Shown: piece by piece, positions 6,001 through 40,709 of the stretch
Position numbering within the stretch: position 1 is the stretch's first letter
Layout of the letters: every line of letters begins with the position of its first letter
Source: Anaerolineae bacterium
GTDB lineage: Bacteria; Chloroflexota; Anaerolineae; B4-G1; DUEL01
Assembly: GCA_034435875.1 (NCBI GenBank)
Contig: DAOTWL010000188.1
Coordinates: 1 to 42,855 of the forward strand
DNA: 42,855 nucleotides
Direction of reading: 5' to 3'
Position numbers and translations under genes: made by a program
The notes under the pieces: generated by a model
The model's input: only the letters and a program-made list of their open reading frames with translations
What the model was told of the DNA's origin: nothing
Databases searched by the model: none

Positions 6001-6774
6001 ATGTTGCTTGTGGCGTTTATCGTGGAAATTCTCATCATGCTGGGTGCGCCGGTGGCGCTCTGGCTCTTCTTGCGGCGGAAGTACCGGGCCGCCTGGGGGC
6101 TGATCGCGGTGGGCGCGCTGACGTTCGTCCTCTCCCAGGTGGTGCATATCCCGCTGAACCTGGGATTGGGCCTGATCGGGGGCGGGCGTGGGGTGGCCCT
6201 CTGGCCCCTTCCGGCGATGGCCGCCGTGGCGGGCCTGAGCGCCGGAATCTGCGAGGAGGGGGCCCGCTATCTGGTGCTCCGTTTCTGGCGGAAGGAGGCC
6301 CGCTCGTGGAGCCAGGGGCTGGCCTTCGGGGCCGGGCACGGGGGGATAGAATCCATCCTGCTGGGGCTCTCCGTCCTGAGCGGCTTCGTCGGTATGCTGG
6401 TCCTGCAAAGGTTGGGGCCCGAAAATCTGGGGCTCTCCGGGGAGTTGCTGGAGCAGACCCGACAGCAGATGGAAGCGTACTGGGCCACGCCCTGGTATCT
6501 GCCCCTTCTGGGCGGGCTGGAGCGGGTTTTCGCCATCACGATGCATATCGCCTGGACGCTCCTGGTGCTGCGGGCAGTGGTGCGGGGGAACCTCCTCTGG
6601 CTGGTCCTGGCGGTGCTGGCCCACGCGCTGGTGGACGGGCTGGCGGTGGGCCTGATGCAATCGGGGGTTTCCCTTCCGGCCATAGAGGGGGTGGTCTTCC
6701 TGCTGGCGCTGGGCGCGCTGGCCATCATCCTGGCCCTGCGGCCGCGCGGGGCGGCGGAAACCGCCAGCGGATAG
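6001..6774 (+). CDS. YhfC family intramembrane metalloprotease-like membrane protein
   Basis: 257 aa, polytopic, with the motifs GICEEGARY and ERVFAITMHIAWT that are typical of YhfC/DUF2324. SD AAGGAGG upstream. Confidence 0.7.
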   Translation: MLLVAFIVEILIMLGAPVALWLFLRRKYRAAWGLIAVGALTFVLSQVVHIPLNLGLGLIGGGRGVALWPLPAMAAVAGLSAGICEEGARYLVLRFWRKEARSWSQGLAFGAGHGGIESILLGLSVLSGFVGMLVLQRLGPENLGLSGELLEQTRQQMEAYWATPWYLPLLGGLERVFAITMHIAWTLLVLRAVVRGNLLWLVLAVLAHALVDGLAVGLMQSGVSLPAIEGVVFLLALGALAIILALRPRGAAETASG

Positions 6775-6920
6775 GGGGGCGCGTTCCGTTTTTAACGCCG
6801 CCGTGGAACGGGGCATGGCGCCGGACCCGGAAAAGGCAGTGGACCAGGTACTGGCCAGACCCCTTGCCCGCATGGGATGTTTCACGTGAAACGACCCAGG
6901 TGCCTGGCGCGGAGAAGAGA

Positions 6921-7760
6921 ATGGACCCTTCCCTGTATTCCCATCTCATAGACCTGGCCCTGGCCGAGGACATCGGCCCCGGAGACGTCACCTCGGAGGC
7001 GGTGTTGCCGCCGGACCTGCGCCTGCGCGCCCACATCGTCGCCAGGCAGGCGGGAGTCGTCGCCGGATTGCCCATCGCCGAGGCCGTCTTCCACCGGGTG
7101 GACCCGTCCATCCGCTTTACCCCCTGCGTCGGGGACGGCGCCCGGGTGGAGGCCGGAACCGTCCTGGCGGAGGTGGAGGGGCCGGCCCGAAGCCTCCTGG
7201 CGGCCGAGCGGACCGCCCTCAATTTCCTCCAGCGCCTCTCCGGCATCGCCACCCTCACCCGCCGCTTCATGGACGCCGTCGCCGGGACGCGCGCCGTCAT
7301 CCTGGATACCCGCAAGACCCACCCCGGCTACCGGGCCCTGGAGAAGTACGCCGTCCGCATGGGCGGCGGGCAGAACCACCGCATGGGCCTCTATGATATG
7401 GTGCTCATCAAAGATAACCACATCGCGGCGGCCGGCTCCATCACCGAAGCCGTCCGGCGGGCCCGCGCCGCCCGCCCCGACCTGCCCGTAGAGGTGGAGG
7501 TCAGGAACCTGGACGAACTCCGGGAGGCGCTGGAACTGCCCGTGGACCGGATTATGCTGGACAACTTTGACCTGGAGACCATCCGCGCCGCCGTCCGCAT
7601 CGCCGCCGGACGGGTGCCGCTGGAGGTCTCCGGCGGCGTGACGCTGGAGCGGGTGGCCGAACTGGCCGCAACAGGGGTGGACTACATCTCCGTGGGCGCG
7701 CTGACCCACTCCGCGCCGGCGCTGGATATAAGTATGGAGGTGATTGAGGGAGGGAGATGA
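6921..7760 (+). CDS. nadC: nicotinate-nucleotide pyrophosphorylase (carboxylating)
   Basis: LALAEDIGPGDVTS...ERTALNFLQRLSGIATLT...ILDTRKTHPGYRALEKYAVRMGGGQNHRMGLYDMVLIKDNHI...MLDNF...EVSGGV is canonical NadC. ATG 6921 lies inside the longer ORF 6306..7760, whose N-terminal extension is low-complexity junk. Confidence 0.95.
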   Translation: MDPSLYSHLIDLALAEDIGPGDVTSEAVLPPDLRLRAHIVARQAGVVAGLPIAEAVFHRVDPSIRFTPCVGDGARVEAGTVLAEVEGPARSLLAAERTALNFLQRLSGIATLTRRFMDAVAGTRAVILDTRKTHPGYRALEKYAVRMGGGQNHRMGLYDMVLIKDNHIAAAGSITEAVRRARAARPDLPVEVEVRNLDELREALELPVDRIMLDNFDLETIRAAVRIAAGRVPLEVSGGVTLERVAELAATGVDYISVGALTHSAPALDISMEVIEGGR

Positions 7761-9042: not shown

Positions 9043-9801
9043 TCAGTTGATCGCCGCCCGGCGCAACAGGGAGATCACCAACGGGCGCGCCGGGTGCTCC
9101 ACCCGCTCCAGTTCAGCAATGACCCCTTCCACGTCGTAGGCCACCCGCCGCAGGGTGACAGTGCACTCCGGGCCGTGGAAGTCCAGCAGGACATATCCGG
9201 CGCGGGGGTCGCCGTCCAGCGGCAGGCCGACGCTCCCCCCGTTGACCAGCCGCACCCCGCCCACCTCCCGGTCCAGCGGGCGATGGGTATGCCCGTAGAC
9301 CATCAGGCGCGCCTCCAGGCTGGAGAGGTGGGGGAGGATCTGCTCCTCCGGCGTGTCGGGGAAGATGTTGGTCTCGTCGTCGCCGGGGACGGCGTGGACC
9401 GCCACAACGCGGCCGTAGCCGGGGATGTCCATCTCCAGCCGGGTCGGCAGGTCGCGCAGGAAGAGGTAATCCTCCCAGGTCAGCTGCCCCACCGTCCAGC
9501 GGAACAGCGCGTCCCGCATCTCCAGAAAGCCGGGCATGCGCGCCCAGTCCTCCGGGGAGCGCACGGGCGCCACCGGACGGCGCCCGGTGACCAGGTAGCG
9601 GTCGGTGTTCCCCTGGAGGAAGGAGACATTGGGGAGCGCGCGCAAGCGGGCCAGAGTCTCCCCGGGCCAGGGGCAGAAGGCGACCAGGTCGCCCAGTACC
9701 CAGTAGAAGTCCGGCCGGCCCTGGCGCTCCGCGTCGGCCAGGACCGCCTCCAGCGCGGGCAGGTTGCCGTGGATGTCGGAAAGGACGGCCAATCGGGTCA
9801 T
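9043..9801 (-). CDS. metallophosphoesterase family protein
   Basis: MTRLAVLSDIHGNLPALEAVL...VLGDLV...GNTD...VYGHTHRP...NGGSVG are the canonical calcineurin-like phosphoesterase motifs. ATG 9801 has SD GGAGG, inside ORF 9043..9960. Confidence 0.85.
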   Translation of the reverse strand: MTRLAVLSDIHGNLPALEAVLADAERQGRPDFYWVLGDLVAFCPWPGETLARLRALPNVSFLQGNTDRYLVTGRRPVAPVRSPEDWARMPGFLEMRDALFRWTVGQLTWEDYLFLRDLPTRLEMDIPGYGRVVAVHAVPGDDETNIFPDTPEEQILPHLSSLEARLMVYGHTHRPLDREVGGVRLVNGGSVGLPLDGDPRAGYVLLDFHGPECTVTLRRVAYDVEGVIAELERVEHPARPLVISLLRRAAIN

Positions 9802-27672: not shown

Positions 27673-27792
27673 TTTCGGTGTAAAGGGGGCAGGAGGATGA
27701 GGAGGGGTAAACCGCTGCCCGCCCATTAAGGAATACCCGCCTCAACCGCACAGGTGGAAAAAGTTACAGACCGAAACCATCAAAGGAGTCCT

Positions 27793-28452
27793 ATGGAAGC
27801 AATAGAAACCGCTATTGTGGAATTTCTCCATTCCGTTCTGAACGCCATCGGCTGGCCGGGGGTCGTGCTGATTATGGCGCTGGAGAGCGCCAATATCCCC
27901 ATCCCCAGCGAAGTAACGATGCCGCTGGCCGGATGGATGCTGGTCCAGGCAAAGGGATGGCCTCTCTGGCAGGCCGTTCTGGACGGCGGCTTTTACGGTG
28001 GGCTGGGGTGTACCATCGGCTCTATCGCCTCCTACTTGCTGGGCATGTGGGGAGGGCGGCCCTTCCTCCAGCGCTGGGGCCGGTACATCCTCATCTCTCG
28101 GCACGACCTGGAGCAGGCCGACCGCTGGTTTGCCCGCTGGGGCGATTGGGCCGTCTTTATCTCTCGCCTCCTGCCCATCATGCGCACATTCATCTCCTTC
28201 CCTGCCGGCGTTGTCCGGGTTCCGCTTATTCGGTTCACCGTCCTCAGTTTCATCGGCTCCTTCATCTGGTGCGCCGCGCTGGCCGCCGCAGGCCACGCCT
28301 TCGGGAGCGAATGGGAGCGCATCCGGGAAATCATGCGCCCCTTTGACATCCCCATCGCCATCGCTATTCTGGCTGGCCTGGGCTACTACATCTACCGGCA
28401 CATCCGCCGGGCCCAGACCCCCATCGCTGCCGGAGAGGGCGAACCGGTATAA
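27793..28452 (+). CDS. DedA family membrane protein
   Basis: WPGVVLIMALESANIPIPSEVTMPLAG...GRPFLQRWGRY...RWFARWGDWAVFISRLLPIMRTFISFPAG is canonical DedA/SNARE-associated. ATG 27793 has SD AAAGGAG. Confidence 0.9.
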   Translation: MEAIETAIVEFLHSVLNAIGWPGVVLIMALESANIPIPSEVTMPLAGWMLVQAKGWPLWQAVLDGGFYGGLGCTIGSIASYLLGMWGGRPFLQRWGRYILISRHDLEQADRWFARWGDWAVFISRLLPIMRTFISFPAGVVRVPLIRFTVLSFIGSFIWCAALAAAGHAFGSEWERIREIMRPFDIPIAIAILAGLGYYIYRHIRRAQTPIAAGEGEPV

Positions 28453-28504
28453 AAAGCGGAAGGCGCTTTTGGAGCTGGCATGACCTTGATGCAGCGAAAC
28501 CGTT

Positions 28505-28580
28505 TGTGGTCAGCCACGAAGCGGAGCGGCGTCAAAACGGCACTTCGCTGCGCTCCGTGCCTTACTACGAACAAGAACGA
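28505..28580. repeat. family B hairpin element (short copy)
   Basis: GTGGTCAGCCACGAAGCGGAGCGGCG-TCAAAA-CGGCACTTCGCTGCGCTCCGTGCCTTACTACGAAC. Confidence 0.5.
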
Positions 28581-28600
28581 AGCGGTTCGGGCAATCCCTG

Positions 28601-29416
28601 ATGAACGTCCTTCAGCATCTGCGAGAACTCTGGCAGTACCGGGACCTGGTCCGCAACCTGGTTGTCCGGGACCTGAAGGCCCGCTATAAAAACTCCATCC
28701 TGGGTGTGGCCTGGTCGTGGGTCAACCCCCTGATGATGATGGTCGTCTACACTATCGTCTTCAACATCCTGGCGGGTCGCTCCAACCTCCGCAACTATCC
28801 GGTCTTCATCCTCTGCGCCCTGTTGCCCTGGAACTTTTTCGCCAACGCCGTCTCCCAGGCGACCAACAGTATCGTGGACGCCGCGCCCCTGGTCAAAAAG
28901 GTCTACTTCCCCCGCGAGGTGCTCCCCCTCTCCGCCGTCCTGAGCAATATGGTCCACTTCCTCATCTCCCTCCCCGTCCTCTTCCTGCTGGCCCTGGCGA
29001 TGGGAAACCCGCTGACCGGCTGGGCTCTGCTGTTCCCCGTCACCCTGGCCATTCAAGTAATGTTCACCGTCGGCGTCGGATTCATCACGGCCACGCTGAA
29101 CGTCTTCTACCGGGACACCCGGCTGATTATGGATGTGCTCCTGCTGGCCTGGTTCTTCCTCACCCCCATCTTCTACCCGCTCACCACCGTCCCGGAACGG
29201 TACGTCCTCTGGGGCGTCTCTATCAACGTGCGGGCCTGGCTCTTGCGGCTGAACCCGATGGCCTCCATTATATCTTCGTATCGGGACCTCCTGTACTGGG
29301 GAACCTCCACCGCCTGGGACTTCCTTCTGCGAACGGCGGTGACATCGCTCATCGTCCTGGTGATCGGCTACCTGGTCTTCCTGCGGTACAGCCCCCGGTT
29401 TGGGGAAGAGGTGTAA
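28601..29416 (+). CDS. ABC-2 type polysaccharide/teichoic-acid export permease (Wzm/TagG-like)
   Basis: LWQYRDLVRNLVVRDLKARYKNSILGVAWSWVNPLMMM...VKKVYFPREVLPLS...FYRDTRLIMDVLL is the canonical Wzm/TagG signature. Confidence 0.88.
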   Translation: MNVLQHLRELWQYRDLVRNLVVRDLKARYKNSILGVAWSWVNPLMMMVVYTIVFNILAGRSNLRNYPVFILCALLPWNFFANAVSQATNSIVDAAPLVKKVYFPREVLPLSAVLSNMVHFLISLPVLFLLALAMGNPLTGWALLFPVTLAIQVMFTVGVGFITATLNVFYRDTRLIMDVLLLAWFFLTPIFYPLTTVPERYVLWGVSINVRAWLLRLNPMASIISSYRDLLYWGTSTAWDFLLRTAVTSLIVLVIGYLVFLRYSPRFGEEV

Positions 29417-29417
29417 A

Positions 29418-29445
29418 GAAGCAGGAAGTAGGAAGCAGGAAGCGA
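29418..29445. repeat. tandem heptanucleotide array, 4 x GAAG(C/T)(A/G)(G/A), filling the whole intergenic spacer
   Basis: GAAGCAG GAAGTAG GAAGCAG GAAGCGA lies between the stop at 29416 and ATG 29447. Confidence 0.75.
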
Positions 29446-29446
29446 G

Positions 29447-31153
29447 ATGAAATGTACGACGGTTGGCTTCCGGATGGTGGTCGTTGGGATTTTCCTGACG
29501 GCGATCCTGGCGTGTGCTCCTTCGGGGTTCCTGCCCAGACTGCCCTCCACGCTCCTGCCCACACCATCGCTCCCATCTCCGCCCCCCGATATCGCCCTCG
29601 CCCCTGAGGACGTCACGCTCTACCCCCTGCCGGTCCCCGGACCGGGGGGCCGCTGGCTTTTCTACCGGGGCGACCAGATTTCTTTTGACGTCACCCCCCG
29701 TTATCTGGGCACAATCCCGCCAGAAGATGTGACCGTCCGCATTTATCGCCTGAAGGGGACGGGACAGGAAGTCCTGACCGAAGGGACCGTTGGCTATCCG
29801 ACTTTTGACGGGGCGCCGCGTGCCCGCCTGACCTGGGTCTGGGATACCCGGGACGCCGGGGGACGGGAGACCCTGGTCGTCCATCTGGACCCTGACGACC
29901 ACATCCAGGTCGGAGACGAGGACCCGACCAACAACGTGGTCACGTTGACCATCCGCTTCATCGCCGACGCCGCCCGCCCGGCCCCGGAGGCCCTGGCCAC
30001 CTGGGCGACGACGACCACCCACTGCTGTGTCCTCCATTACCTGACCTGCACCCGCGCCGAGCGGGACCTCACGATTTTGACCCAGGCTACCGAACGCGCC
30101 GTTGCCCTTGTCCAGGAGCGGCTGGGCACCCGGCTGGCATCGCCGCTGGAGATATACTTCATCGGACGGGTGGTCGGGCAGGGCGGGTATGCTCAGGAGG
30201 GCGTTGTCCTCTCCTACCCGGACCGCCTCTACACCGGGGAGGGGCTGGAAATCGTCCTCCGCCATGAAGCCGTCCATGTGCTGGATGCTTCCCTGGTAGG
30301 GCCGGCGACGCCGGCCCTGCTGCGGGAGGGGCTGGCCGTATGGGTCGCCGGAGGCCATTACCGGCCTGAGTCTATTCCCTCTCGGGCCGGTGCGCTGGTC
30401 CGGCGGGGTTGGTATATCCCGCTGGCAGAACTGGCGGAGGATTTTTACAGCCACCAGCACGAAATCGGTTACCTGGAAGCCGCCGCCCTGGTCGCCTACC
30501 TGGTGGAGACCTATGGCTGGGACGAGTTCCTTTCCTTCTACCGCCGGGCCGGGGAGAAGCCCGACGCATCCCCGACCGAGGCACTGGATAACGCGCTGCG
30601 CCATTCCTTCGGCGCAGGGTTGGAGGAAACCGAACGGGCTTTCCGGACCTGGCTATCGGGTCAGCCCACCACCCCCGAAGAGATGCGGGATTTGGAACTC
30701 ACCGTCCGCCTCTTTGAGGCCATTCGCGGCTATCAGCAAATGGATGACCCCATGGCATATTTTCTGAGCGGGTGGTTCCCCGACGCGGCGGAGGGGAAAC
30801 AACGGGGCATTACCACCGACTTTCTCCGGCGCCCGCGCACCGCGCGGGCCGTTGCCGTAGAACTGATGTTCGTCTCGGCCCAGGAGGCCCTCCGGCGGGG
30901 CGCACTGGATGAGGCCGACTTCCTGATCGGCGGAGCGGAGCAGGCCCTGGAGGGAGATTTTTCTATCCCCCCGGCATCGGAGTACCTGGCCATCGCGCGA
31001 ACTATCGCTGGCCGGGGCAGCGAGGCCCAGCGGGTGGAGATACGGGGAGAAATGGCCTATGTCTGGGTCACCCCCATCGGGGACAAGACCGCCTGCTCGC
31101 TCCAGATGTGGACGCTGTACCGCGCCGATGCGCACTGGATAGCGGGGGAATAA
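29447..31153 (+). CDS. lipoprotein with an HExxH (peptidase MA-like) motif
   Basis: The signal peptide has the lipobox ILAC. LEIVLRHEAVHVLD is a zinc-metalloprotease-like HExxH. 568 aa, otherwise unrecognised. Confidence 0.7.
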   Translation: MKCTTVGFRMVVVGIFLTAILACAPSGFLPRLPSTLLPTPSLPSPPPDIALAPEDVTLYPLPVPGPGGRWLFYRGDQISFDVTPRYLGTIPPEDVTVRIYRLKGTGQEVLTEGTVGYPTFDGAPRARLTWVWDTRDAGGRETLVVHLDPDDHIQVGDEDPTNNVVTLTIRFIADAARPAPEALATWATTTTHCCVLHYLTCTRAERDLTILTQATERAVALVQERLGTRLASPLEIYFIGRVVGQGGYAQEGVVLSYPDRLYTGEGLEIVLRHEAVHVLDASLVGPATPALLREGLAVWVAGGHYRPESIPSRAGALVRRGWYIPLAELAEDFYSHQHEIGYLEAAALVAYLVETYGWDEFLSFYRRAGEKPDASPTEALDNALRHSFGAGLEETERAFRTWLSGQPTTPEEMRDLELTVRLFEAIRGYQQMDDPMAYFLSGWFPDAAEGKQRGITTDFLRRPRTARAVAVELMFVSAQEALRRGALDEADFLIGGAEQALEGDFSIPPASEYLAIARTIAGRGSEAQRVEIRGEMAYVWVTPIGDKTACSLQMWTLYRADAHWIAGE

Positions 31154-31162
31154 CGCCGGGGC

Positions 31163-31191
31163 TTGACACCCCCTCCGGTTTATGCTATCAT
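31163..31191 (+). promoter_or_regulatory. promoter, TTGACA-17 nt-TATCAT
   Basis: TTGACA at 31163-31168 and TATCAT at 31186-31191, upstream of the MBL hydrolase gene. Confidence 0.5.
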
Positions 31192-31274
31192 CTTTTTACC
31201 CCTAAAGGGAGAGATTTGGGAGCATCAGAGCGGCCCTTCCTCCCTCCTACCAGCAGCAGGCAAGGAAGTGAACG

Positions 31275-32156
31275 ATGCTCCAGGAACGAGTCTCCGCCGA
31301 CATCTACCTTTTTACCAGTGATCTCTACACCCAGGTTACCGCCGGTGTCATTGTAACCCCAGCGGGAGCCGTCCTGGTGGACACGCTCCCGTTCCCGATA
31401 GAGACGCAGGCCATCCTTCACTTCCTCTCCCGTCGGGCGCCAGCAGGTCTCCGTTATATTATTTATACCCACTACCATGCCGACCACATTTACGGGGCCT
31501 GCCTGTTCCCCGATGTCCCTATCATTGCCCACGCGCGCTGCCGTGAACATCTGCTTACGGCAGGGGAGGAGGGGTTAGAGGCCGCGCGCGCGGAAGCGCC
31601 AGACCTCCTGGAGAACGTCTCCATTCGCCTGCCCGACATCGTGCTGGATCGGGGAGAATTGATTCTATCCCTGGGTGGCAAAACCCTGCGCATCTTTGAG
31701 ACCCCTGGCCATTCCGATGATGGGATCTCCGTCTACGTGGAAGAAGACCTGGTGCTCTTCGCTGGAGATGCGATGATGCCTGTGCCTACGATCGTGGACG
31801 GTGACCTGGAGATACTGAAGCAATCACTCCGGAAGATTCAGGCCATAGAACCCGAAAGCATTGTCCAGGGGCATGGAGAGGTGATCCTGCGAGGGGAAGT
31901 CAAAGATGCGCTGCGGACCAACCTGGCGTACCTGGAGACCATCCAGCGGATCGCGGCCGAGGCGGTGACTAACGAACGGCGCCGGGCCACCCTCCTCAAA
32001 ACCGACGTGGAGAAGTGTGGGGTTCCTCGCGTGGCGCTGAACGGAGAAGCCCCGCGCCTCCATGCAGCCAACCTGCGGACGCTCTACAACCGATTAGCCC
32101 AATCTGCAGACCAGAGCGGGGCATCTAACTCCCAGAAACCGGGGAGAAAAGGATGA
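31275..32156 (+). CDS. MBL-fold metallo-hydrolase
   Basis: IIYTHYHADHIYG (HxHxDH) and TPGHSDD motifs. 293 aa. Confidence 0.88.
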   Translation: MLQERVSADIYLFTSDLYTQVTAGVIVTPAGAVLVDTLPFPIETQAILHFLSRRAPAGLRYIIYTHYHADHIYGACLFPDVPIIAHARCREHLLTAGEEGLEAARAEAPDLLENVSIRLPDIVLDRGELILSLGGKTLRIFETPGHSDDGISVYVEEDLVLFAGDAMMPVPTIVDGDLEILKQSLRKIQAIEPESIVQGHGEVILRGEVKDALRTNLAYLETIQRIAAEAVTNERRRATLLKTDVEKCGVPRVALNGEAPRLHAANLRTLYNRLAQSADQSGASNSQKPGRKG

Positions 32157-32407
32157 ACGTCGCGGTTACCGGGGCGGCAGGATATGTGGGACAGCGGCTA
32201 ATGGCCCGACTGAGATCCGACCCTGACGTAGAACAAATCGTCGGTATGGACATCCGGCCCCCTGAAACGCTGCTTCCTCCCAACGCGACCTTCCTCCAGA
32301 TGGACATCCGTGACCCTGCGCTGGGAGACATCCTTCGGCACTATAGAGTAGAGAGCCTGATCCACACTGCGTTTATTCCGGTTATCGCGGTGGCACTAAT
32401 TCGGTAG
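32153..32407 (+). pseudogene. N-terminal fragment of an NAD-dependent epimerase/dehydratase (truncated after about 72 residues)
   Basis: MNVAVTGAAGYVGQRLMARL (a Rossmann GxxGxxG) ...VESLIHTAF, after which the reading frame leaves family-like sequence and stops at 84 aa. Full-length members are about 300 aa. ATGA coupling to the MBL gene. Confidence 0.6.
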
Positions 32408-32462
32408 GAAGCAAGAAGTATTTCATTTGTTGTCTGCTTTTTTCCGCAGTCACCGTAGAAGA

Positions 32463-32803
32463 TGTGGATTTGTGGATAACCGGACATGCGGGATGAGCCC
32501 CCCAATTCCTGGGCTGTCGGTGCGAACCGGGTGTATTAGTGGGGGGATAGGGGAGAGATACCGCTTCCAGGGGCAGGGGATAAGTGGGGGAAAGTTGGAG
32601 AGAGTCTCCTCAAAGGACCGCATTGAGGGAGGGAGGATTCGTCGGGAGAGACACCGTACACAGGCGGAATTATCCACAGGCAATCAGAGTTATCCACAGA
32701 AATTAGCGGGTTATCCACACCCGAAGCGGGGCCCGGGGTGGGAAGAAGGCCACATATGGGGGGAAGGGGTCACCGATGTGCCAGGAATAAGGGATGTGGA
32801 TGG
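32463..32803. promoter_or_regulatory. DnaA-box cluster (oriC-like or DnaA-titration site)
   Basis: Perfect TTATCCACA occurs at 32670-32678, 32690-32698 and 32711-32719 in the same orientation, 20-21 bp apart. A perfect inverted box TGTGGATAA lies at 32471-32479. Degenerate 7/9 inverted boxes lie at 32463-32471 and 32795-32803. The AT-rich tract 32413-32447 is adjacent. Confidence 0.6.
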
Positions 32804-32851
32804 GTGGGAAGAGTTGTGTCTTCCAGTAGATAAACCTCAAGGAGGTACCCC

Positions 32852-34579
32852 ATGGAACTTGCCCGATTTCTCGCAGTAGCGCGAGGTGATGAGCCCGCGG
32901 AACTGGTGCTCCGGAACGGACGGGTCATCAATGTGTACACGGCCGAGATCATAGAGGCCGATATTGCTGTTGCGGACGGCCACATTGTCGGCGTGGGGGG
33001 CGGATACGACGGCCGCCAGGAGATAGACCTGGGGGGCCGGTACGTCTGCCCCGGCCTGATAGATGCCCATGTCCACATAGAGTCCTCTATGGTGACCCCC
33101 TATCAGTTCGCCCGTGCCGTCGTCCCTCGGGGGACGACGACCGTCGTCTGCGACCCCCACGAAATCGCCAACGTGGCCGGGACGGCCGGGATCCGCTATA
33201 TGCTGGACGCGTCAGAGGGCCTGCCGCTGACCGTCTACGTGAACCTGCCCTCCTGTGTGCCGGCCACAACCATGGGGACCGCCGGCGCTGAATTGAGCGC
33301 AGCCGACCTTCTGCCGCTGGCTGACCTTCCCCGGGTCCTGGGTCTGGCGGAGTTGATGAACGTCCCGGGCCTGGTCCTGGGATTCCCCGACGTGCTGGCG
33401 AAGGTGGCGGCGTTCCAGGACCGGGTGATAGACGGCCACGCCCCGGGCATCGGCGGGAAGTGGCTCCAGGCATACGTGGGTGCCGGGCCGGGTTCAGACC
33501 ACGAATGCACCACTGCCGCCGAGATGCTGGAGAAACTCCGCCTGGGCATGCGGGTCTTCATCCGGGAGTCCACGGCGGCGAAAAATCTGCGCGCGCTGAT
33601 ACCGGCCATCACGCCCCAGAACAGCCGTCGGTGTGCTTTCTGCACCGATGACCGCCATCCGGCTGACCTGCTGGACGAGGGGCATCTGGACCATCTCATC
33701 CGGCTGGCGGTGGCTGAAGGGTTGGACCCGGTCACGGCCATCCAGATGGCTACCCTGAACGCGGCCGAATGGTTCCGTCTGCGCGACCGGGGAGCCATCG
33801 CCCCCGGTCTGCGGGCCGACCTGGTGGTCTTTTCGGACCTGAAGAATTTCCGCCCGGAAATGGTCTTTTCCGCCGGGCATCTGGTGGCTCAGGCCGGAGA
33901 ACCGGTTGGCCGCTGGGAGGAGCCTCCGGCGGACGACTCCCCGGTGCGGGGGACGGTGCGGGTGGACTGGGGACGGGTCTCCCTGCGGATTGAGGCCCCA
34001 GATGCTGGTGCCCGGAGGGTCCGGGTGCGGGTCATCGGTGCTATCCCCGACCAGGTCCTGACCGAGCACCGGGTAGAGGAACTTCCCGTGCGGGACGGGG
34101 AGGTAATGGCCGACCCGGAGCGGGACATCCTGAAACTGGCCGTCATAGAGCGGCACCGGGGGACGGGCAACGTGGGGCTCGGGTTTGTGCAGGGGCTGGG
34201 ACTTCGCCAGGGAGCATTGGCGGGAAGCGTGGGGCACGATGCCCACAATCTCATCGTCGCTGGCTGCGATGATGTCTCTATGATGACGGCCGCCCGCGCG
34301 GTGGCCCGGATGGGTGGCGGCCTGGCCGTCGCGGTGGGGGAGCGGGTGCTGGCGACGGTGCCGCTGCCGGTCGCTGGCCTGATGTCGGACCAGCTGGTGG
34401 AGACGGTCCGCTTCCAGATGGACAGCCTGACCCGGGCGGCGAGATCGCTGGGGACCGCTCTGCCGGACCCCTTGATGACCATGAGTTTCCTGCCCCTGGA
34501 GGTCATCCCGGCGCTGAAGTTGACGGATCAGGGGCTGGTGGACGTGGAACAGTTTGCCTTTGTATCCCTTTTCGTCTGA
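32852..34579 (+). CDS. ade: adenine deaminase
   Basis: LVLRNGRVINVYTAEIIEADIAVADGHIVGVG...PGLIDAHVHIESSMVTP...GTTTVVCDPHEIANV... is canonical Ade. 575 aa. SD AAGGAGG upstream. Confidence 0.92.
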   Translation: MELARFLAVARGDEPAELVLRNGRVINVYTAEIIEADIAVADGHIVGVGGGYDGRQEIDLGGRYVCPGLIDAHVHIESSMVTPYQFARAVVPRGTTTVVCDPHEIANVAGTAGIRYMLDASEGLPLTVYVNLPSCVPATTMGTAGAELSAADLLPLADLPRVLGLAELMNVPGLVLGFPDVLAKVAAFQDRVIDGHAPGIGGKWLQAYVGAGPGSDHECTTAAEMLEKLRLGMRVFIRESTAAKNLRALIPAITPQNSRRCAFCTDDRHPADLLDEGHLDHLIRLAVAEGLDPVTAIQMATLNAAEWFRLRDRGAIAPGLRADLVVFSDLKNFRPEMVFSAGHLVAQAGEPVGRWEEPPADDSPVRGTVRVDWGRVSLRIEAPDAGARRVRVRVIGAIPDQVLTEHRVEELPVRDGEVMADPERDILKLAVIERHRGTGNVGLGFVQGLGLRQGALAGSVGHDAHNLIVAGCDDVSMMTAARAVARMGGGLAVAVGERVLATVPLPVAGLMSDQLVETVRFQMDSLTRAARSLGTALPDPLMTMSFLPLEVIPALKLTDQGLVDVEQFAFVSLFV

Positions 34580-39473: not shown

Positions 39474-40340
39474 TCATGCGTACGTCACTGTCCCGCCCCG
39501 GACTTCCATCCGTACCCGGCGGCACGCCCAGCACATGTAGGCGACGGTGACGAAGTAGCAGGCGGGCAGCCGGTGGGCCGCGCCGATTTTGACGCCGAAG
39601 ATGGTGGTCTTCCCACCGAAGCCCATCGGGCCCACCCCCAGTTCGTTGCACTCCCGCAGCAATCGCTCCTCCAGCGCGGCCAGTTCCGGCACCGGGTTGA
39701 CGTCATCCAGCGGGCGGAGGAGTTGCATCTTGGCGTAGGTGTAGGCCGTCCCCCGGTCGCCCCCGATGCAGATGCCCAGGATGCCCGGGGCACATCCCTC
39801 GCCCTGGGCCCGGTGGACGGCGTCCAGCACGACCCGCCGGACCCCCTCCAGGTCCCGGCCGGCCTTCAGGGGCTCGTAGGGGAGGCTGTACTGGATGCTG
39901 ACGTTTTCGCTGCCGCCTCCTTTGAGGAGCAAGGCGACTTCCAGGGCATCGCTCTCCCATTCCTCCATGTGGAAAACAGGGAAGCCGATGCCCAGATTGT
40001 TGCCGCTGTTGCGCCCGGTGAGGGAATCCACGGCGTTGGGGCGCAGGTAGGCCCAGCGGGTGGCCTCTGCCACGGCCGCTTCCGCCTGGGCGCGCAGTTG
40101 CCCGGCGCTCATCCCGGCCGGATAGCGGATGTGGAAGATGGGGGTGCCGGTATCCTGGCAGATGGGCTGGGAACGGGCGCGCGCCAGGGCGACGTTCTCC
40201 AGGATGGCCGTCAGCGTGCTGGCGGCGGCGGAACCCGCTTCCTCCCGGTCGCGGGCGGCCTGCAGCGCGGCCTCCACGTCGGCGGGCAGGTCGGTGGAGG
40301 CCTTTCGGATCAATTCTACCAGAGGTTCGGTCAGGTCCAT
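39474..40340 (-). CDS. Fe-S type (class I) fumarate/tartrate hydro-lyase, alpha subunit
   Basis: ARARSQPICQDTGTPIFHIRYP...LRPNAVDSLTGRNSGNN...LLLKGGGSEN is the canonical N-terminal catalytic domain. Confidence 0.88.
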   Translation of the reverse strand: MDLTEPLVELIRKASTDLPADVEAALQAARDREEAGSAAASTLTAILENVALARARSQPICQDTGTPIFHIRYPAGMSAGQLRAQAEAAVAEATRWAYLRPNAVDSLTGRNSGNNLGIGFPVFHMEEWESDALEVALLLKGGGSENVSIQYSLPYEPLKAGRDLEGVRRVVLDAVHRAQGEGCAPGILGICIGGDRGTAYTYAKMQLLRPLDDVNPVPELAALEERLLRECNELGVGPMGFGGKTTIFGVKIGAAHRLPACYFVTVAYMCWACRRVRMEVRGGTVTYA

Positions 40341-40380
40341 CGGGTCTTCTCCTGAATCTGGCTATCTGACACTTTTCAAA

Positions 40381-40600
40381 TAGGACGCGGAAAAACACGG
40401 ATGAACACGGCAATAAAAAAATGATTTTCCGTGCATTTCCGTGTTCTTCCGTGTGCTACAGGACGCGGAAAATGGGGATAGACGCGGGTTTTTTTTCAAA
40501 ACGCATGGCAAAAGGCATCTCACCCAAAGGCACAAAGATCACAAAGATTTATGTTGATTTTCTTTGTGCCTTTGTGTCTTGGTGTGAGAACGATGGGTAG
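40381..40600. repeat. low-complexity hairpin and oligonucleotide-repeat region
   Basis: AGGACGCGGAAAA is repeated directly at about 40381 and 40459. CACGGA.../...TCCGTG motifs occur in inverted arrays at 40394-40455. An imperfect palindrome CTCACCCAAAGGCACAAAGATCACAAAG...CTTTGTGCCTTTGTGTCTTGGTGTGAG lies at 40519-40588. Confidence 0.55.
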
Positions 40601-40709
40601 CTCCTGAATTTGTCCTGTAGCGCAGGCCACCAGGCCTGTATCCGCGGGCTGACAGCCTGCGCCCCGGCGAGCAGCCTGCGCTACAGGGAATTCCATCACT
40701 CAACTCTCA

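Follow-up and report, generated by a model that had tools for sequence, protein, structure and literature searches.

A conserved DnaA-box element of the Thermoflexales/Anaerolineae (Chloroflexota) is probably a chromosomal replication origin unlinked to dnaA

Chromosomal replication origins (oriC) in which a cluster of DnaA boxes adjoins a segment of readily melted DNA, including origins that lie at a distance from the dnaA gene, are textbook knowledge. Loci that act on the initiator itself are also known: datA promotes the hydrolysis of DnaA-ATP and the DARS loci the exchange of ADP for ATP, with a dependence on IHF. We know of no replication origin of the Chloroflexota that has been characterised experimentally, and a literature search on a Thermoflexus origin or dnaA found nothing relevant. 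The DNA considered here, referred to as the window, is a stretch of 42,855 bp and about 66% GC (34% AT) from an uncultured bacterium of the Thermoflexales/Anaerolineae in that phylum (contig DAOTWL010000188.1). It holds a conserved non-coding element of ~420 bp (~32409–32835), a candidate oriC with DNA homology to contigs of five related lineages (L081, L185, L187, L188 and L190). We propose that this element is probably the chromosomal oriC of its host, unlinked to dnaA, and presumably the only origin of that chromosome. The nearest relatives of the adenine deaminase gene (ade) beside the element are found in metagenome-assembled genomes (MAGs) of the Thermoflexia, Thermoflexales and Anaerolineae, and the host is probably a thermophile.

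In origins situated between dnaA and dnaN, of the type described for Bacillus subtilis, a double DnaA box, a spacer, a run of DnaA-trios and an AT-rich DNA-unwinding element (DUE) together form the basal unwinding system, or BUS (PMC8287927, PMC6669920). The published rule calls a BUS where at least three consecutive DnaA-trios (3′-NAN-5′) lie within 16 nt of a box; about 15% of the origins in the DoriC database lack one by this rule, so the BUS is frequent rather than obligatory (PMC8287927). Database predictions of origins for the Chloroflexota rest on weak, degenerate boxes (PMC8287927).

The perfect DnaA box TTATCCACA occurs four times in the window, and all four copies fall inside 32471–32719. 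Dinucleotide-preserving shuffles of the window are expected to contain 0.06 copies, and none of 100 reached four. An earlier note on this DNA had located these boxes and considered the cluster to be beyond chance, and it was right on both counts. Three of the perfect boxes form a direct array on the plus strand (32670–32678, 32690–32698 and 32711–32719), with spacings of 20 and 21 bp, or two helical turns, as the note had also said. The fourth, at 32471–32479 on the minus strand, is part of a double box (TGTGGATTTGTGGATAA, 32463–32479, −) whose other member is a 7/9 box, AAATCCACA, at 32463–32471; the note had placed this second box correctly, and the two members share one nucleotide. Weaker boxes on the minus strand complete the set: a degenerate 7/9 box, AGGGGATAA (32575–32583), which is a candidate low-affinity site oriented like the left double box; a right-hand inverted 7/9 box, TGTGGATGG, correctly reported before at 32795–32803; and a further 7/9 box at 32825–32833 that appears when two mismatches are allowed in the search. 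The element thus presents what is expected of an oriC, a significant non-coding cluster of four perfect and at least three 7/9 boxes within 340 bp, and DnaA boxes are the sole repeats found in it.

Contigs of relatives were retrieved via homologues of both flanking genes, giving six lineages of the Thermoflexales/Anaerolineae: the window, L081/L082, L185/L186, L187, L188/L189 and L190/L191. The element is present in all five lineages besides the window, with homology over its full length. The MAGs that contain it include GCA_014874475.1, GCA_017880035.1, GCA_052745315.1, GCA_025060135.1 and GCA_049720595.1, and on contig JADBJJ010000026.1 (288 kb) it occupies ~106.9–107.3 kb. When the six are aligned, the direct boxes and the double box have mean pairwise identities of 0.92–1.00, against 0.49–0.58 for the spacers and linkers. 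The first direct box is at 1.00 and the second and third are at 0.96, with flanking bases GTTATCCACAGAAAT conserved around the second, and the double box is at 0.92; the corresponding values are 0.49 for the 190-bp spacer and 0.58 for the inter-box linkers. The weaker boxes are also retained. The right-hand inverted box (identity 0.82) becomes a perfect box (TGTGGATAA) in L185 and matches at 8/9 positions in L187 and L188, and the box at 32575 (identity 0.73) has a GGGGAT core that is invariant in five lineages and is an 8/9 match (TGGGGATAA) in L188. Within the 21.7-kb loci of the relatives, perfect boxes are found only in the element.

The genes on either side, by contrast with the element, are not constant, and the flanking sequence differs between lineages on both sides. 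In the window, L185, L187 and L188/L189, the element lies between a gene for a metallo-β-lactamase (MBL)-fold protein and the ade-M23 peptidase pair; in L081/L082 it follows the MBL gene and is succeeded by the contig end; and in L190/L191 its neighbours are a bPH_5 gene, facing it with the 3′ end, and a full-length epimerase gene, facing it with the 5′ end, and it is inverted and 2.7 kb from ade, with two other genes between. The reverse situation also occurs, with ade lacking boxes nearby in L001, L002 and L192 and the MBL gene lacking them in L083, L085 and L087. Because it persists in three flanking contexts, the element is kept for its own sake, as an autonomous feature. The alignments indicate a selected non-coding unit that has been retained while its neighbours changed, and one under strong purifying selection across lineages; conservation as a unit among related genomes is a further property expected of an oriC. 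Two leads from the neighbouring genes were not sustained. The epimerase fragment that abuts the element in the window shares only 30% identity with the L190 epimerase, which makes their common adjacency coincidental rather than orthologous, and the best matches (80%) in an adenine deaminase search of GTDB genomes were not syntenic and had no boxes.

The position of the cluster ahead of ade raises the question of whether it is simply a promoter controlled by DnaA, linking the cell cycle to purine salvage or the remodelling of the cell wall through the downstream ade-M23 genes. DnaA is known to act as a transcription factor where its boxes cluster (PMC3245932), the right-hand inverted box is ~50 bp upstream of the ade start, and the interval from the boxes to the ribosome-binding site contains a conserved palindrome and a small hairpin. 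However, L190/L191 keep the element with an epimerase gene downstream and ade 2.7 kb away behind two genes, and the ade orthologues of L001, L002 and L192 have no upstream boxes. The element outlasts changes of neighbour and is therefore not a feature specific to an ade promoter. Moreover, no sigma-70-like promoter was found on the plus strand, and five to seven boxes spread over 340 bp with an AT-rich flank exceed the needs of a repressor site. We regard a dedicated ade promoter as distinctly improbable, while a subsidiary role in which the right-hand box modulates the flanking promoter, by analogy with E. coli mioC, is possible.

The two features that had seemed to favour a promoter differ in their distribution. 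The palindrome CCACATATGG (CCAYATATGG, 32750–32759), ~30 bp 3′ of the third direct box, has a pairwise identity of ~0.89, and its ATATGGG does not vary among the six lineages, even in L190 with its different downstream gene; it may be the binding site of some factor, a −10-like promoter element or a methylation target. The small inverted repeat GGAAGA-GTTGTG-TCTTCC (32807–32824, +), immediately before the ade ribosome-binding site, is kept where ade follows the element and is not conserved in L190, where the epimerase gene follows; it probably belongs to the ade leader or promoter and not to the origin. A riboswitch or leader RNA before ade was considered and dismissed, with no Rfam match at gathering thresholds or at E ≤ 1, and the element as a whole matches no RNA family in Rfam even at E ≤ 1.

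A second alternative, given the same standing in the earlier note as an origin, is that the cluster is left over from the origin of a plasmid, phage or other replicon that integrated here, beside a gene truncated in the process. A truncated epimerase gene does abut the element, there is a local GC dip at the element, and the gene order around it is rearranged among relatives. Nevertheless, a comparison of the element with 72,556 plasmids and 50,697 phages gave no match, and no rep, integrase or mobility genes are present among its annotated neighbours. It lies in housekeeping contexts, in the interior of chromosomal contigs of 64–288 kb (288 kb for L185/L186), under the strong selection described above. 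The epimerase remnant itself is decaying in place: in L185 it is shorter (9154–9237, 28 aa, 68% identical), and in L188 and L081 there is none. The truncated gene is an ordinary pseudogene beside the element, and the relic replicon is effectively refuted as an explanation, with a residual likelihood that we consider negligible.

What distinguishes the element from a simple array of binding sites is the architecture of its left end. The double box, together with two flanking C residues, makes up a 19-mer (TGTGGATTTGTGGATAACC, GGTTATCCACAAATCCACA) that is common to the dnaA-dnaN spacers of many unrelated bacteria. Scanning metagenome contigs with this 19-nt double box gave 94 matches, and 13 of the 22 matches with at least 1.5 kb on both flanks sit exactly between dnaA and dnaN, mostly in low-GC bacteria; none of the matches is a true homologue of the element, and the motif is what it has in common with the other origins and box clusters recovered. 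At the dnaA-dnaN loci a GC-rich spacer of 4 nt separates the 19-mer from CTA or TTA trios, beyond which there is an AT-rich DUE, and in the examples L088, L096, L104, L143, L155 and L175 the sequence of this unwinding module is remarkably invariant across phyla. The scan also recovered a separate family of contigs (L093, L101, L120, L130, L132, L133 and L157) of 53–56% GC, several from human-gut assemblies, which carry four or five perfect and eight near-perfect DnaA boxes around the 19-mer and have no dnaA or dnaN within several kilobases; these may represent another dnaA-unlinked origin, or a DnaA-box cluster (DBC), in a different lineage.

The likeness of the element to the BUS of dnaA-dnaN origins extends beyond the double box, which is identical and has the stronger box upstream in both. 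Read on the box strand, the window and its relatives continue NNNN CTA YGR TGA CTR, so that a 4-nt spacer precedes a CTA at the canonical offset of the first trio, and an AT-rich region lies beyond. This block (32448–32462, +; AGTCACCGTAGAAGA, AGTCAYCRTAGAG), between the double box and the AT-rich segment, is a degenerate DnaA-trio-like region, and its mean pairwise identity of 0.75 compares with 0.49 for the spacers. There are also differences: the element has one or two canonical trios, rather than three or more, ahead of the conserved 3-nt-periodic sequence CTA YGR TGA CTR; it is not located between dnaA and dnaN; and its AT-rich region is 57–71% AT, compared with 70–87% in the dnaA-dnaN controls.

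The candidate DUE is a T-rich, AT-rich segment at 32409–32447 (+), with 71% AT in 35 bp. Its sequence is not conserved whereas its composition is, since in every lineage it falls in the 94.5th–99.9th AT percentile and has more T than A. The stacking energy of the 60-bp duplex here is −77.7 kcal/mol, ~2.8 standard deviations (sd) weaker than the window mean of −95.2 (sd 6.2). The segment adjoins, in each of the six lineages, a terminal DnaA box that faces it, as in an oriC, with the caveat that its AT rank is moderate.

Several of our observations argue against identification of the element as oriC. The trio rule for a BUS is not satisfied at the double box, where neither the window nor the relatives have more than two trios in a row (CTT CTA). 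The same rule passes nine of 12 dnaA-dnaN control loci and fails three at the double box, and one of those that fail, L097, alternates CTA and CGA in a manner resembling the CTA CGA TGA CTA TGA of L185. The earlier note took the AT-rich segment for the most AT-rich tract of the window, and this does not hold: it is the third-ranked 35-mer (71% AT against 74% at 40534) and ranks fourth to seventh among windows of 50–120 bp. Its instability is likewise moderate, as around ten other sites in the window are no more stable. Genes that classically mark an origin, dnaA and dnaN among them, are missing from the 32 kb to the left of the element in the window and the 10 kb to its right, and from within ±10 kb of it in every relative, and the flanking genes are co-oriented. 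The whole window is in fact devoid of dnaA, dnaN, gyrB, recF, parAB, gidAB and rnpA, and the earlier note had correctly pointed to both the missing genes and the common orientation. The comparison of box clusters covers the window and the relatives' 21.7-kb loci, and the dnaA locus of the lineage, where a stronger cluster may exist, lies outside this range. The lack of a dnaA neighbour does not, however, disqualify the element, because E. coli oriC is itself ~42 kb from dnaA (PMC3245932). A ParA-like gene ~8.7 kb to the right of the element in relatives was rejected as an origin marker, as it is a P-loop match only and far below the family cut-offs.

Nucleotide skew is ambiguous at this scale. 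The GC skew at four-fold sites in the window, calculated over at most 42.8 kb of sequence, is ~0 to the left of the element and +0.06 and +0.14 to its right. Across the loci compared (the window, L185, L187, L188 and L081) there is no reproducible skew switch, and this absence belongs with the points against an origin; the main influence is an effect of the coding strand, and minus-strand genes in L185 show no shift. At these sites, coding strands have more C than G in L185, L187, L188 and the window genes flanking the element, and this coding-strand bias masks any replication-associated skew.

The main alternative is that the element is an origin-proximal regulatory cluster like E. coli datA and DARS or the DBCs of B. 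subtilis, binding many DnaA molecules and tuning the availability or nucleotide state of the initiator, with the true oriC at another place, such as beside dnaA. Clusters of this kind have been described, usually near oriC, and can regulate neighbouring genes (PMC3245932). A dense group of intergenic high-affinity boxes with no dnaA or dnaN nearby would fit this description, as would the shortfall in canonical trios, the moderate DUE and a local skew that carries no origin signal. It is less easy to reconcile with the left end of the element, where a strong and a weak box face a T-rich segment across a conserved block in the geometry of an unwinding module. A titration site needs no such module, and its absence is part of what defines the class. 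Homology along the whole length of the element in six lineages and three contexts also counts against this explanation, which we consider possible but rather unlikely.

A parS-like site provides some information on the location of the element in the chromosome. The palindrome TGTTTCACGTGAAACG (6878–6893), a 15/16 match to the consensus, lies 25.6 kb from the element, in the intergenic region between yhfC (6001–6774) and nadC (start near 6923), and shuffles would be expected to contain 0.05 matches even at three or fewer mismatches; neither parB nor parA was found among the genes of the window. Two published accounts place parS sites mainly close to oriC (PMC5961200, PMC7022226). Secondary DnaA-box clusters are typically origin-proximal too (PMC3245932), and for this reason the site does not separate an oriC from a datA or DBC locus, which limits its value for our proposal. 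It supports the proximity of the element to an origin rather than its identity as one.

A bolder version of the regulatory explanation can also be envisaged, in which the element is not an origin but a deeply conserved datA/DARS-like locus of the Chloroflexota that controls the DnaA cycle and, unlike the control loci described so far, has borrowed the double box and meltable flank of an origin. If true, this would be the first such element outside the Proteobacteria and Firmicutes, and a new design, but we think it doubtful. A milder departure from convention would be an origin that works with the non-canonical, 3-nt-periodic CTA-YGR-TGA-CTR block in place of canonical DnaA-trios.

The earlier note had held an oriC, a datA/DARS-like locus and a relic replicon to be roughly equal possibilities. 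The first two stay under consideration and the third is unsupported, and we place the oriC above the other options because of the conservation of the element as a unit, the double box of dnaA-dnaN type, the T-rich flank, a polarity matching that of E. coli oriC and the parS-like site. If the element is indeed the oriC, a plausible sequence of events can be suggested. DnaA would occupy the predicted high-affinity sites, at the left double box, in the direct array of three boxes and at the right inverted box. Anchored there, two DnaA assemblies of opposite orientation would spread over the weaker GGGGAT-type boxes in the G-rich spacer. The assembly at the left double box would cross the conserved block, with its 4-nt spacer, CTA and 3-nt-periodic sequence, into the T-rich, AT-rich segment; there, 32409–32447 would be melted and held single stranded, allowing the helicase to be loaded.

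The remainder of the element and its surroundings can be described briefly. The gap that holds the boxes runs from 32408 to 32851, so the intergenic region described earlier is real, although its length is 444 bp and not 445 bp. The spacer between the box groups is skewed towards purines (G), with a GC skew of +0.152 for 32–33 kb, in agreement with the earlier description, and contains two blocks of conserved alignment columns, CCCCAATTCCTG (CCCYAATTCYTG) at 32500–32511 and TATTAGTGGGG at 32534–32544. To the left of the gap is an 84-aa N-terminal fragment of a short-chain dehydrogenase/reductase (SDR)/epimerase (32153–32407; Pfam Epimerase, positions 1–76 of 240), the start of which overlaps the stop codon of the MBL gene (ATGA); an 8/9 DnaA box, TGATCCACA, is found inside this truncated gene at 32358 (+). 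To the right are ade and then the M23 peptidase gene, and every gene neighbouring the element is on the plus strand. The genes of the window are of a housekeeping nature: URO-D, an SPFH-domain protein, nadC, amidohydrolases, cysteine desulfurase, mnmA, a DNA methylase, ABC transporters, the MBL-fold hydrolase, ade, the M23 peptidase, fumarase and tRNA-Pro.

Some further features of the window and its relatives deserve mention. The gene order near the MBL gene and the element varies to an unusual degree among relatives with 81–94% protein identity (L081, L083, L085, L087, L185, L188 and L190 compared with window positions 27754–34579), with at least five sets of neighbours: PepMA-MBL, GlmS-MBL, MBL-FeADH, MBL-LTD/PLDc and bPH_5-element-epimerase. 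Contigs from several independent assemblies (L081, L082, L182, L183 and L184) end ~80–600 bp 3′ of the MBL gene, at or near the element; L081 ends 85 bp past it, and L081 and L082 end at the same base. This pattern suggests recurrent assembly breaks at the site, caused by strain-level rearrangement, a change in coverage or a repeat. Elsewhere, an N6/N4 DNA methyltransferase gene (PF01555, 21107–22084) lies inside a low-GC patch (0.57 at 21–22 kb), with a 194-aa open reading frame (ORF) without a Pfam match upstream of it, and could be an orphan methylase or part of a small restriction-modification island. Another low-GC patch at 1–2 kb (0.54 GC; within positions 1–2000) includes a 522-aa ORF without a Pfam family, and a patch at ~40.5 kb (40300–40700) is the most AT-rich spot of the window.

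The element does not change any general principle. Its interest lies in providing a clean and conserved origin candidate for the Thermoflexales/Anaerolineae, which is new for a poorly studied phylum, and a further example of an origin uncoupled from dnaA. As a natural variant of the unwinding module, combining a canonical double box with degenerate trios in a thermophile of 66% GC, it offers a means of probing how strictly DnaA-trios are required. In practical terms, it could serve as an anchor for growth-rate estimates based on read depth (peak-to-trough ratio, PTR) in hot-spring metagenomes and for the orientation of MAGs.

In conclusion, we compare the element with the described loci that it resembles. 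The annotated E. coli oriC was measured with the same code, and shares the polarity of the element: a T-rich DUE is followed by TGTGGATAA (R1), a weak inverted box and then direct boxes, with R2 and R4, in direct orientation, ~105 and 180 bp further on. The overall size of 250–400 bp is also similar, and E. coli oriC, between mnmG/gidA and mioC, is unlinked to dnaA, as the element is in the window. The two show no sequence homology beyond the boxes. Whereas E. coli has a single R1, the element has a tandem double box; in place of R2, R4 and the intervening low-affinity arrays it has three perfect direct boxes at 20–21 bp spacing; it lacks GATC/SeqA sites and 13-mer repeats; and its host is a high-GC, probably thermophilic member of the Chloroflexota. 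With datA, DARS and the DBCs of B. subtilis the element has in common that several high-affinity DnaA boxes are clustered between genes at a distance from dnaA, that its position is probably origin-proximal, as judged from the parS-like site 25.6 kb away, and that it may influence a neighbouring gene. It differs from them in its DUE-like flank and its double box of unwinding-module type, and also in that its homology is kept, as a unit, from species to species and from one context to another, which is not so for the Bacillus DBCs (PMC3245932). Within its own phylum, the tabulated DoriC predictions for Anaerolinea thermophila UNI-1 and Caldilinea aerophila have weak BUS and trio scores (PMC8287927), and the predicted Caldilinea origin is at ~1.05 Mb, not near position 1 (supplementary table, PMC8287927). 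Those predictions, with which we compared the element as tabulated, make use of degenerate boxes with two to four mismatches, whereas four of the element's boxes are perfect and its architecture is much clearer.

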